Shown piece after piece: positions 15,265 to 23,036 of a stretch of 64,000 nucleotides of DNA. The translations under genes were made by a program, and so were the position numbers. Positions within the stretch are counted from its first letter, which is position 1. Every line of letters begins with the position of its first letter. The DNA lies in IMG/VR virus record IMGVR_UViG_3300028042_000006, positions 6,818-70,817 of that record. One strand, 5' to 3'. The notes under the pieces were generated by a model. The model saw only the letters and a list, made by a program, of their open reading frames with translations, made no database searches and was not told the origin of the DNA. Source of the stretch: a virus.

Positions 15265-15302
15265 GTCTGTCTTGGCTTCCATTTGGTATAAGTCCAGCAG
15301 AA

Positions 15303-15993: not shown

Positions 15994-15996
15994 CCA

Positions 15997-16408
15997 ACAG
16001 AATCAAGGCGTGTTTGTCTTGGTTCTGTAATCAGGAGAGTATACAGATTTTAAATGTGGTGTACAAGTAAAGACCGGGAAGTAGTTTGCAAACTATTCCG
16101 AACACCTACTTATGCAAGCGTTTATTACGAGTGCGATAGATGGGTATACGAACTATTTGAGGGTAGCGAATAGAGAACGATGGGAATTCGAAGGTCAGTT
16201 CGAGGCTGACTATGCTGATGTGCCGAAAGCAGATCAAAAACAATAAATATTTATGGAGCAGAGAACTACAAGCAAAGCTGCCGCCACAAGCAAGGTAGAA
16301 ATTGGCAACTCTGCTCTAGTAAATATTTAATGTTATTGAATAGATCCTCCACGAAAAAAATTAAAACAGTTGTGTGTGTTAATTGCAAAGGGAGGATCTA
16401 TTGAGTAA
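15997..16408 (+). ncRNA. candidate structured RNA region (includes terminator-like hairpin 15997-16028)
   Basis: Hairpins 16077-16099, 16193-16211 and 16216-16236; long stems 16244-16263/16309-16329 and 16339-16350/16391-16402. Confidence 0.45.
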
Positions 16409-18819: not shown

Positions 18820-19033
18820 GAAAACAATCTTAGAATGGGCCTCTTCCGCTCCTGGTACAGGTATGTGGATACATAAAAGATATCCAGACTCCTCATGGCA
18901 ACTTGCATCTACTGATAATATGTGCTGTTTTTATGAAGGATGTGACTATGTTGTTGATAACAATAGAGCTGCTAATAACAAACAGATATCAGACAATCTA
19001 TATAAACTAAAAGGTAAAAAATATTATGAATAA
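18809..19033 (+). CDS. hypothetical protein
   Basis: 74-aa ORF overlapping both neighbours. Confidence 0.6.
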   Translation: MRHKKTILEWASSAPGTGMWIHKRYPDSSWQLASTDNMCCFYEGCDYVVDNNRAANNKQISDNLYKLKGKKYYE

Positions 19034-20486
19034 CCCAATCCACGCAACAGACTTTTACAAGACTGGACACTTAAACCAGTACCCTAAAGGTACGACAAAG
19101 ATTTACTCAAACTTTACACCAAGATCAGCTAGACTATTTAATCACTCAAAATTATACGACAACAAAGTTGTTGTATTTGGATTACAGATGTTCATTAAAA
19201 ACTTTCTTATTGAAGAGTTTAATAATGACTTCTTCAATCAACCACTAGAAGATGTAATCATGCGATATCAAAGACGCATGGATGGTGCATTAGGTGTAGG
19301 AGTTGTTAAGACTGACCACATCGAAGCATTGCACAAGCTTGGCTATTTACCATTGTTAATCAAAGGTTTGCCAGAAGGTGGAAGATACGATATCAAAGTA
19401 CCTCACCTTACAATTACAAACACAGAACCAGAGTTCTTCTGGCTAGTTAACTACTTAGAAACTGTGTTGAGTACAGAAATGTGGAAGCCTACAACAACTG
19501 CCACAACAGCATTTGAATTTAGAAGAGTGTTTGAACACTGGGCTAATGAAACTGGTGGTAGTGCTCAATTCATTCCCTTCCAAGGGCACGACTTTTCGGC
19601 AAGAGGATTGTCAAACAGAGAAGATGGACACAAGGCTTCAATCGGTCACTTGACAAGTTTTGTAGGAACAGACACTATTCGAGCAATCGATGGTGCAGAA
19701 GACTTCTATGGTGCTAACTCAGATGAAGAGCTAGTTGGAGTAAGCGTCCCGGCAACAGAGCACTCGGTTATGTCAATGGGTGGAGAACTCAACGAAAAAG
19801 AAACTATCAAGAGATTGATTACAGAGGGATACCCATCAGGTATTATCTCAATCGTTTCTGACACTTGGGATTTCTGGCACACAATCTCTCAAACCACAAT
19901 CGAATTGAAAGATGAGATCATGGCTAGAGATGGTAAGGTTGTCTTTAGACCCGACTCTGGAGATCCAGTAGATATTATCTGTGGTGATCCATTACACCCT
20001 GACGAGAATGCTCGTAAAGGTGCAATAGAAGTTCTTTGGGATATCTTTGGAGGCACAATTAACTCTAAGGGTTTTAAGACCTTAGATAGCCACGTAGGAC
20101 TTATCTATGGTGACTCGATCACTCTTGATCGTCAATGGTCAATTTTGGAAAAACTTGCATCCAAAGGATTTGCTTCTGACAATATCGTACTAGGTATTGG
20201 TTCTTATTCATACCAGTATGTGACAAGAGACTCTTTAGGCTTTGCAATGAAAGCAACGTATGGAGAGGTCGATGGTGTTGGTAGAGAAATCTCCAAAAAT
20301 CCAAAGACAGATTCAGGAACAAAGAAGAGTGCTGTAGGATTACTACAAGTACTTGATGGTATCTTGCAGGACAGAGCATCCAAGTCAGCAGAAGAGGACA
20401 GTGAATTAACTGAAGTCTTCAGAGATGGTGTCTTGACCAAAGAAGTAACATTACGTGAAATCAGAACCAGACTTGTAGCAAGTTAG
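19026..20486 (+). CDS. nadV: nicotinamide phosphoribosyltransferase family (probable NARP1 Namat-like)
   Basis: ATDFYKTGH..QYP, HDFSARG, VPATEHSVM, IVSDTWD, RPDSGDP, IYGDSIT, GSYSYQYVTRD. Confidence 0.92.
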   Translation: MNNPIHATDFYKTGHLNQYPKGTTKIYSNFTPRSARLFNHSKLYDNKVVVFGLQMFIKNFLIEEFNNDFFNQPLEDVIMRYQRRMDGALGVGVVKTDHIEALHKLGYLPLLIKGLPEGGRYDIKVPHLTITNTEPEFFWLVNYLETVLSTEMWKPTTTATTAFEFRRVFEHWANETGGSAQFIPFQGHDFSARGLSNREDGHKASIGHLTSFVGTDTIRAIDGAEDFYGANSDEELVGVSVPATEHSVMSMGGELNEKETIKRLITEGYPSGIISIVSDTWDFWHTISQTTIELKDEIMARDGKVVFRPDSGDPVDIICGDPLHPDENARKGAIEVLWDIFGGTINSKGFKTLDSHVGLIYGDSITLDRQWSILEKLASKGFASDNIVLGIGSYSYQYVTRDSLGFAMKATYGEVDGVGREISKNPKTDSGTKKSAVGLLQVLDGILQDRASKSAEEDSELTEVFRDGVLTKEVTLREIRTRLVAS

Positions 20487-20604
20487 GCACAAGATGTCAT
20501 TTGCTGAGTTTGCTTTAAAACATTTCACAAGATCAAATATACAAGTACTATTACCCATGCACGTAAAAGACAAGCATGGTGTATATCACTTGTTCGTGGC
20601 ATAG

Positions 20605-21258
20605 TTCAGTACACGATTGGTAACTATTGTATTTAGTGCAGTATATCCAGAAGTCGAACACTTATAAGCCCACAAGACCAGGCTGACCCGAAAAGCCATA
20701 TCAATGCGTTAGGTATGGTGAGCCTTAGTAGATTCTTGGGATCAAAGGTGATAACGAATGAAGTGACCTATGCATTGGGTTTTATCGCAAAGTGACCACA
20801 GCAACGCACCAGTGGTGTTTCTACTACGTCTTGTCGTAAAGACGTTAAATTTCTAACAATGATTCCTTTAAAACTTTAGTCGGTTGAGCGGATCGGTCCA
20901 TCACCCAACCTCTGGGATGCTTAATGACTTAAATCTTTAGCGAATTTGTTTCTATCGCAGCAATGCACATCATGAAACACTAACGAGAACGGTCCGATGA
21001 TAGTGACGGAGTTTAGCAATCTACCTATCAGGCTCGCAAACATGGCAACTAGAAGATGGCGACTCATAAATAGACTAGCGAGTTGCAACGACAACGAGCC
21101 TTTCAACTTGGCGGGGAAGGGCTCTGCGTTGTTTTATGTCAAACGCGCAGATAGCAATGGTCGAATGATCATAGAGGTGCAACCCCTTAACTTGGCTGTA
21201 TCAATGTATTTAGGTCGCTCTTAGATACTTTTTACGAAATTCGGGATCGCTTCCCGGA
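20605..21258 (+). ncRNA. candidate large structured non-coding RNA
   Basis: ~650-850 nt with no credible ORF, GC-richer. Many helices, e.g. 20696-20718, 20826-20845, GCAACT/AGTTGC 21045-21086, 21091-21132, 21241-21258; shares a 37-nt module with the 454-852 region. Confidence 0.55.
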
Positions 21259-21267
21259 GAAATCAAC

Positions 21268-21349
21268 TATCACTCACAACAGTAATCATTATGGAAATAC
21301 TATATGGACATATTTTAGATCCCACTATTGATTACTGTTTTGAGTGATA
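21268..21349. repeat. 21-bp inverted repeat with 40-nt loop just before an SD
   Basis: TATCACTCACAACAGTAATCA / TGATTACTGTTTTGAGTGATA, one mismatch. Confidence 0.85.
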
Positions 21350-21366
21350 AAAATAAAAGGATAATA

Positions 21367-21576
21367 ATGGAAGAAATTTTTGTACAACCAGCAGAACTAG
21401 AATCAGCAAGAGCACTTTGGAAAAAAGTTGCAACAGAAAACGACTGGGATTCAGATCCCTTTTATGTACAAGTATGGGTAGATGATACTGGACTTGTAAA
21501 AGACAGTGTATCCTTCAAAGGTATGGATCACGACATATTCTTACCTGCAGAAGAAGATGAGAAAGAGGAGTATTAA
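21367..21576 (+). CDS. hypothetical acidic protein
   Basis: AAGGA SD before MEEIF; TAATG overlap with the helicase. Confidence 0.7.
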   Translation: MEEIFVQPAELESARALWKKVATENDWDSDPFYVQVWVDDTGLVKDSVSFKGMDHDIFLPAEEDEKEEY

Positions 21577-23036
21577 TGAAGCCAACCATAGAACAACAAT
21601 CAATTATCGATGAAGTTCAAAAAAAGAGCTGTAAACTATTAAAAGTTGAAGCCAAATCAGGCTCAGGAAAAACCTCAACTCTTGTCAGTATTGCTGATGT
21701 ATTGAAACCTAAAAATGGTATCTACCTTGCATTCAATAAGCATATCGCAACCGAAGCATCAAAGAAGTTTCACAAGGGAGTAAAGTGTATGACAACACAC
21801 TCTCTTGCATATCAAAACACAGTAAGACAGCTCGATCTTAAAGTCGGCTGGTTTAATTGGAAAACGATTACCAAGAGAATGAGATATGAATTCAAAATTT
21901 TTGTAATTGACACAATGAATGATTTCTTTTTGTCCAAATATACAAACTTTGCAGAATTTGTTGTAGAAGAAAAAAAACAACATAGAGATATGGATATCAT
22001 TCATAAAGATATTTACAAGTTTGCACACTTCTACATTAAAGAGATGTTTCAAGGTAAAATCGAAATCACTCATGCTGGTTACTTAAAAATGTATCACATG
22101 ATGCTCGAAAAAGGTAAGCTAGTACACAATGAGTTTGATCTCGTTATGCTAGATGAAGCTCAAGATTCTGCACCAGTAGTATTGGAGATCTTCCAACTAT
22201 TACCAGCAGTAAAAAAAGTCATGGTAGGAGATCCCTTTCAATCAATATTCAAATTCAACAAATGCGTAAATGGATTTGAAGAATTGCGTGATAAAGGTAC
22301 ATCAAAACCAATGTCACAAACCTTTAGATGTAATCCAGAACTTGCAAAACAGGTGGAGAATTTCATGCAGAAACATGCTGATCCTGAGTTTGCCTTTGTA
22401 GGAACAGAACCAGCTGATGACATCATCAGAACAGTAATGTATATCTCAAGAACAAACTCTTCTCTAGTCGGTAAAATTATCGAACTAATGCAGGGCGGTG
22501 TCACATTCAATATGGCACGAAAAGCTAAGATAGTGTTCGAGCTGGTTCTAATATTGATTCACCTGAAGCCTGGTGGAAAAGTATTCTCGTCTGAGTGGAA
22601 GTATCTTCAAGAAGATGCAGATGAATGGAACAACGATGCATTCTTGAAACAAGAGTACAGTTCAGCATTCAAATACATTTCAGAGAAGTACGGTGAAGAA
22701 CCGGGAATCAAATCAGCCATCGGTGTTATCGGCACTCATGGTAGAAAAAAAGTTCTTGAAGCCTATGAGTTTGCAACCAAGCATGAGAATGACAAAAACC
22801 ATAAAATCACAATCGGAACATGTCATTCACTTAAGGGTGCAGAAGCAGACAAGGTTCATATCTTAGATGATGTGAATAATTCAATTCGTGATCTCATCGA
22901 AGAGAAAAAAGAACTGTGGGAATACACAGAAGCAGACAAAGAAAAAATCAATGTTGTTTATGTTGCCTACACAAGAGCAGCAAAACAACTCGTCAACGCA
23001 GAGTGGTTAGAACCACTTGAAGAAGATGAAATATGA
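21576..23036 (+). CDS. UvrD/Rep-like SF1A helicase
   Basis: EAKSGSGKT, LAFNK, TTHSLAY, LDEAQD, VGDPFQSIF, SQTFRC, TCHSLKGAE, YVAYTRA. Confidence 0.9.
   Translation: MKPTIEQQSIIDEVQKKSCKLLKVEAKSGSGKTSTLVSIADVLKPKNGIYLAFNKHIATEASKKFHKGVKCMTTHSLAYQNTVRQLDLKVGWFNWKTITKRMRYEFKIFVIDTMNDFFLSKYTNFAEFVVEEKKQHRDMDIIHKDIYKFAHFYIKEMFQGKIEITHAGYLKMYHMMLEKGKLVHNEFDLVMLDEAQDSAPVVLEIFQLLPAVKKVMVGDPFQSIFKFNKCVNGFEELRDKGTSKPMSQTFRCNPELAKQVENFMQKHADPEFAFVGTEPADDIIRTVMYISRTNSSLVGKIIELMQGGVTFNMARKAKIVFELVLILIHLKPGGKVFSSEWKYLQEDADEWNNDAFLKQEYSSAFKYISEKYGEEPGIKSAIGVIGTHGRKKVLEAYEFATKHENDKNHKITIGTCHSLKGAEADKVHILDDVNNSIRDLIEEKKELWEYTEADKEKINVVYVAYTRAAKQLVNAEWLEPLEEDEI

Follow-up and report, generated by a model that had tools for sequence, protein, structure and literature searches.

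An intergenic region of a deep-sea-vent N4-like phage consists of exchangeable structured elements that may form a cassette of small RNAs

The widest intergenic stretch of a 64,000-nt window of viral DNA, the sequence analysed here, extends from the end of a Nampt gene (position 20486) to the next real gene (21370). This gap is real, non-coding and conserved, and consists of about 10 modules of 23–150 nt, with gain, loss or replacement affecting one module at a time (Table 1). The modules are under purifying selection, M2 and U/V are paired, and element T adopts a tRNA-like fold. With somewhat better than even confidence, we regard the region as a polycistronic + strand cassette whose small structured RNA elements can be exchanged independently.

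The window is part of a 74.6-kb linear virus record that encodes an N4-type virion RNA polymerase, a primase, a capsid protein and a portal protein. The capsid protein is approximately 40% identical to that of cultured N4-like Vibrio phages, and related sequence is contained in hydrothermal-vent and epibiont sequencing runs. The source is a deep-sea-vent N4-like phage. The gap is located in an SSB-resolvase-(Prs-Nampt)-helicase operon. Relatives were reached via homologues of the helicase, the small ORF and SSB (L079, L081, L083–L086, L088 and L228), and material was taken from four sequencing runs, with X2 contigs 10 and 11 and X3 contigs 17 and 18 among the comparisons. Modules were compared in six loci of related phages and in three Logan contigs, among which independent homologues are few: L084 is the same strain as the window, and L079, L081 and L085 come from one sample. 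The helicase of L088 is 52% identical.

Table 1. Features of the gap and its neighbouring genes (positions in the window).
Feature	Position	Strand	Remarks
Nampt (nicotinamide phosphoribosyltransferase) gene	19026–20486	+	upstream neighbour; Pfam/PHROG
M1, two weak hairpins	20487–20592	+	in window, L084, L085; missing from L081, L079, L088
M2, irregular hairpin with bulged outer helix and AGUA/GAA bulged-G (loop E) motif	20595–20674	+	compensatory changes
Mx, optional 150-nt insert	20675–20825	+	in window, L084, X3 contig 17; not in L085, L081, X2 contig 10
My, optional two-hairpin insert	20826–20892	+	in window, L085, X2 contig 10; not in L081, L088
M3/M4, multibranch candidate RNA of ~190 nt	20895–21087	+	conservation; one compensatory pair
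37-nt module hairpin (third copy)	21088–21134	+	z −3.5; exchangeable spacer slot right before T
T, 61-nt tRNA-like cloverleaf	21137–21197	+	MFE fold in 5/6 homologues
U and V, twin hairpins	21206–21258 (21206–21228, 21240–21258)	+	common U(A/C)GCU pentaloop
H, 82-nt near-perfect hairpin	21268–21349	+	z −7.2; 95–100% conserved in six loci
68-aa ORF (optional) and UvrD-like helicase gene (21576–23036)	21370–23036	+	helicase is the stable downstream neighbour

A preliminary description had placed the largest ORF-free gap of the window directly after the Nampt-like gene, at 20487–21258, a stretch of 770 bases. The Nampt stop at 20486 confirms the position and the gap is indeed the largest intergenic stretch, but it is not free of ORFs: two of more than 60 codons lie inside, one of 75 codons on the + strand (20997–21224) and one of 61 codons on the − strand. 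Both lack a ribosome-binding site and neither is conserved; no open reading frame of the cassette combines conservation with a ribosome-binding site. Since L085, a close relative, retains the entire 75-codon frame, it could be argued that the region encodes small proteins. However, this frame has no PHROG match, is shortened to 36 codons in L081, differs downstream in L083 and is missing from L079, L086 and L088, so that we give this explanation almost no credit. Comparison of the window with L081 showed identities of 83% for M3, 90% for M4, 83% for V and 98% for H, compared with 56% at four-fold sites, indicating purifying selection on the modules. This conservation, together with covariation on the + strand in relatives, bears out the description of the region as non-coding, structured RNA.

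The region had also been called GC-richer and hairpin-dense. Its GC content of 42.5% exceeds that of the window (38.4%), but Nampt reaches 40.2%, and a GC content as high as this is found in 6% of windows of equal size to the region (42.5% or more). High hairpin density was not confirmed: as a whole, the region is no more stable than its shuffles (z = −0.42 on the + strand and +0.67 on the − strand), and the elements that beat shuffled sequence are U (z = −3.1), V (z = −2.0), the 37-nt hairpin and H (see Table 1) and no others. A search of the kind proposed at that time (cmscan) returned no Rfam family for the region at gathering score or at E-values up to 10, and ARAGORN called no tRNA in it. 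Hammerhead, T-box, group I/II intron parts, 5S rRNA, SRP RNA, a tmRNA tag frame and an N4 triloop promoter were rejected by eye.

The modular build became evident from the relatives, in which the order of modules is fixed. In L085, the M2 apex differs. M2 is fused straight to M3 in L081, where another hairpin replaces the 37-nt module and Nampt is lacking. L079 carries only T, U, V and H and none of M2–M4, while in L088 SSB is followed directly by M2 and the two ends of M3/M4, with T, U, V and H all missing. In X3 contig 18, a 26-nt hairpin stands in place of 21089–21259 and M4 is joined directly to H, and X2 contigs 10 and 11 skip 20593–20822 and 20673–20960 respectively. A link of the cassette to Nampt is not upheld by these data, because the core is present without Nampt in L081 and L088.

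These exchanges also bear on the idea that the gap encodes a single large ornate RNA with optional peripheral domains. The preliminary description had pointed to the size range of giant RNAs such as GOLLD, the module order is fixed, and GOLLD and ROOL have been found in phages close to tRNA islands (10.1101/2024.12.08.627333). L079 and L088, however, retain disjoint halves, and thus a whole-length fold cannot be conserved. Blocks are deleted or swapped separately, as in the M4–H junction of X3 contig 18, no conserved long-range helix joins modules or the two ends, the z-score is −0.4 and Rfam is empty, all of which makes one giant RNA improbable. The region shares length range and phage location with GOLLD, ROOL and OLE (10.1101/2024.12.08.627333) but differs from them in having no model match and no conserved whole-length fold and in being composite. 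An 800-nt phage gap need not, therefore, be a GOLLD-like giant RNA. Homology with 454–852, for which a structural alignment had been proposed, is confined to the 37-nt hairpin, and after masking of this hairpin z was 1.0.

A second modular structured non-coding cluster follows SSB (window 15994–16382; L079:5093–5580, L081:7272–7647 and L085:4920–5201); that of L081 includes the M4 stem in a tetraloop form. In L228, SSB is followed by another string of RNAs, an 857-nt non-coding cluster (L228:10634–11489). At its end are two tRNA genes of ordinary type, one tRNA-Ser-like and one tRNA-Met-like, together with a long hairpin. One element of this cluster is common to the G000 cluster near C1:4400.

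M1 was found only directly after Nampt, offers no covariation and is probably the Nampt 3′ UTR. For M2, the unpaired core AGUA opposite GAA, which we take to be the bulged-G motif of loop E and of the sarcin-ricin loop, is invariant; the apex is variable and the length ranges from 56 to 80 nt across relatives. Two-sided changes were observed in 5 of its 15 pairs, and 96.7% of positions were paired compared with 25–42% in slid controls, values biased in favour of the structure since it was derived from the same four sequences that tested the pairing. A sarcin-ricin mimic was rejected by eye, as the bulged-G motif occurs without a GNRA loop. The Sak4–SSB spacer contains a short sequence paralogous to the outer helix of M2 (window 15272–15297; L079:4379, L081:6562, L085:4199 and L227:9925), and group I intron core motifs are present in a sequence splitting a Sak4-like gene (L090:5960–6299). 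Among the inserts, Mx may contain an H-type pseudoknot, judging from its sequence. M3/M4 has a conserved small first hairpin, a variable middle part and a strongly conserved final stem with internal loop (M4, 21036–21087).

The 37-nt module had been reported as repeated, and this was reproduced: copies are present at 648–679 and 21095–21126 (0 expected by chance), together with a compensated copy at 695–727, and the outer extension ACAACG/CGTTGT of the copy in the gap is paired in the MFE fold. The slot occupied by this hairpin, which scores terminator-like, is taken by unrelated hairpins in L081, L083, L086, L079 and X3 contig 18, and a further copy of the module with different flanks is found in run X2. 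The heptamer AGAACCA, which forms the stem of the hairpin standing in for the 37-nt module in relatives, occurs 137 times in the G000 record (both strands) and 0 times in this region. It had further been proposed that AGGCTCG (21030–21036) pairs with CGAGCCT (21095–21101) to open the module. The two heptamers are complementary, but the alternative helix has a probability of 0.0004, whereas that of the module helix exceeds 0.95; complementary 7-mer pairs number 17 in the region and 24 in its shuffles. L083 keeps the upstream heptamer without its partner. A riboswitch or conformational switch with two competing, conserved folds of similar stability is not supported.

Element T has an acceptor of 6–7 bp, a D stem of 3 bp with a loop of 5 nt, and a T stem of 4 bp with a T loop of 7 nt. 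The third arm varies freely and is re-paired in three sequence versions. In the three aligned stems (acceptor, D and T), 92% of positions are paired, with one-sided changes only and 0 two-sided changes. The cloverleaf, the T loop with U54, C56 and A58, and G19 in the D loop are tRNA characters. On the other hand, T is 61–64 nt long instead of ~76 nt, lacks U33, a 4-bp D stem and U8/A14, and has third-arm loops of 4–7 nt rather than a 5-bp anticodon stem with a 7-nt loop; CCA is not encoded and there is no usable anticodon. Without CCA, U33 and a standard anticodon loop, T is not a decoding tRNA. The elbow of tRNAs is built by G18/Ψ55 and G19/C56 (PMC10424219). In the window and L085, the D-loop equivalent of G18 is A where the T-loop equivalent of U55 is G, a co-change that represents one evolutionary event, and G19 and C56 are fixed. 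No literature report of an A18/G55 elbow swap was found. As a natural mimic of tRNA, T is very small, and its elbow bases seem to change in concert; it could serve as a compact test object for recognition by RNase P and by tRNA-targeting defence.

Third-arm loops of four relatives (L079:9768–9830, L086:124–186, L081:9767–9830 and L083:112–175) contain TTA, TCA or CTA after TA, the three stop-codon complements. This would fit a T that is derived from, or mimics, stop-codon-reading tRNAs and disturbs termination or ribosome rescue. We consider such a role highly improbable, because the window copy carries a plain tetraloop, U33 and CCA are lacking, the loops have only 4–7 nt, the triplets lie one step apart in an AT-rich loop and the phage genes use code 11. 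The TLD-only tmRNA of mycobacteriophage DS6A (PMC4131195) resembles T as a short tRNA-like RNA with no anticodon function. T differs from it in having a D stem, no G3–U70 alanine identity pair, no CCA end and no tmRNA score, and was rejected as a tmRNA TLD. T also resembles mascRNA and menRNA (PMC11693755), ~60-nt tRNA mimics whose D arm is reduced, which lack a functional anticodon and which are predicted RNase P substrates in a longer transcript. These are products of eukaryotic lncRNAs with no sequence relationship to T, and the likeness is an analogy only.

Downstream of T, hairpins U and V show compensatory changes in 4 pairs, and their covariation score was reached by 0 of 500 shuffles. 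H is situated just 5′ of the ribosome-binding site of the next gene, outside the coordinates of the preliminary description, and is a candidate RNase III or processing site. The loop repeated in U and V, the terminator-like 37-nt hairpin, the M2 outer-helix paralogue in the Sak4–SSB spacer of five genomes and the position of M2 closely behind a stop codon in L081 and L088 might suggest that the modules are cis-acting mRNA or DNA signals (stabilising hairpins, operators, N4-type hairpin promoters, terminators) and that no small RNA is set free. Against this, the elbow change of T, G–U wobbles and the loop E motif fit only + strand RNA, 500–770 nt far exceed the need of spacing signals, and promoter-like matches in the region are at chance level (3 versus 2.9 expected). 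On balance, purely cis-acting signals seem rather unlikely.

What we found is a string of independently exchanged structured units that include tRNA-type elements, as a small-RNA cassette would be. Such a cassette would be read within the operon transcript. Given the 12-step acceptor/T helix with its elbow, the U at −1 and the G at +1, RNase P would be expected to cut before T at ~21138, followed by 3′ trimming. A cut of RNase III type in H might separate the cassette from the helicase mRNA, and the 37-nt hairpin or its substitute might shield the terminus of the unit that comes before it. These steps would leave a processed mRNA together with M2, M3/M4 and T as stable small RNAs. For T, the likeliest role would be twofold: it would mark the transcript for processing and, by displaying a tRNA elbow, act as a decoy for host proteins that bind or cut tRNAs. 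The module-wise exchange suggests selection through host conflict.

A possible protein partner is encoded by the same phage. A 769-aa unannotated protein (L001:4961–7270, with the gene end at window position 453) gave a model with a pLDDT of 92.8 that aligned with three Ro60 structures at Z-scores of 9.5–10.5 and an rmsd of 4.4–6.7 over 311–322 residues. It has a TerD match at residues 493–679 and no Pfam TROVE match, and ~200 relatives include homologues in L228 and L003. According to this model, the protein has a Ro60-like ring fold with a TerD insert and possibly represents an unrecognised Ro60 subfamily; it is probably more interesting than the cassette itself. Directly before its gene, a YrlA-like permuted tRNA module (C1:4192–4304) scored 40 bits, under the cut-off of 69; because the YrlA model also matches 11 of 14 control genomes, the E-value alone is weak. 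The stretch L001:4192–4900 (G000 C1) contains, besides this module, a tRNA-like element at 4648–4723 and two more stems that share the same ends. Right after the Ro60-like gene, window positions 454–798 have a perfect 9-bp end-to-end helix and, at 469, the Y-RNA motif GNCGAAN0-1G, which makes this segment a candidate Y-like RNA of ~345 nt.

One or more modules of the gap (the M2 stem, or M3 and T) might partner the Ro60-like protein and tether it to a host nuclease such as PNPase, a role that is compatible with a cassette and would change its function. Phage Ro60 has been found to bind phage Yrl RNAs and host PNPase (PMC12135203), a heptamer contacted by Xenopus Ro60 (PMC4201824) is present in M3 at 20991, and the M2 ends loosely resemble those of the three Y-like stems by the Ro60-like gene. 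The heptamer, however, is absent in L088 and would turn up in 800 nt with a probability of ~5%, and the Ro-like gene is 20 kb away from the cassette, while described Y RNAs are adjacent to theirs. Moreover, GNCGAAN0-1G was detected only in the third loop of T (21160), neither a strong closing duplex nor a conserved 5′–3′ closing stem was found, T has the normal tRNA order and not the permuted order of T arm, closed acceptor and D arm, and YrlA scores nothing in the region. Hence, although it deserves consideration, we regard this partnership as unlikely. In common with Y RNAs and YrlA (RF02553; PMC4201824; PMC12135203), there are a tRNA-like module and bulged stems, and the phage genome encodes both a Ro60-like protein and a YrlA-like RNA. 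What sets the cassette apart is that T is not permuted, that no closing stem bears a 5′ Ro motif and that the Ro-like gene is distant. It is doubtful, but conceivable, that the cassette supplies undescribed small RNAs (the loop-E hairpin, the 190-nt multibranch RNA and the 61-nt tRNA mimic) for the TerD-inserted Ro60-like protein, forming a new phage ribonucleoprotein that would redirect or decoy host RNA-targeting defence.

In profile, covariance-model and pattern searches, the modules were detected only in one vent phage clade. BLAST against cultured phages gave chance matches only, and the 37-nt module, T and M2 had no pattern matches in IMG/VR. The M4 pattern hit 33 IMG/VR loci, 0 of which scored with the profiles. 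Genome scans yielded nothing for M4 and three pattern matches for M2, taken as chance since they had no supporting fold or neighbouring modules. None of the modules was present in 76 Nampt loci and ~100 helicase loci of more distant phages. The cassette motifs are not in Rfam 15, no paper on them was found, and literature searches for N4-like non-coding RNAs and for T4 RNA C/D found nothing.

Phage tRNA clusters contain co-transcribed stable RNAs with no known function, for example RNA C and RNA D of T4. Clusters of phage small RNAs that include tRNA-like units are a known kind of locus, and the motifs found here are new. Like the T4-type tRNA clusters, the cassette would comprise polycistronic, modular small RNAs that are presumably processed by the host; it differs in having no canonical tRNA, in its new motifs and in its location in the replication operon of an N4-like phage. 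The comparable L228 cluster with its true tRNAs supports assignment to this class. Phage small RNAs are poorly catalogued, and the locus contributes three motifs that are structurally supported and match no family. Downstream of the helicase, genes for APS kinase, glycosyltransferase, Stealth-like and ATP-grasp proteins were observed in L088 (11807–18268) and in L228 (from 13771 onward).
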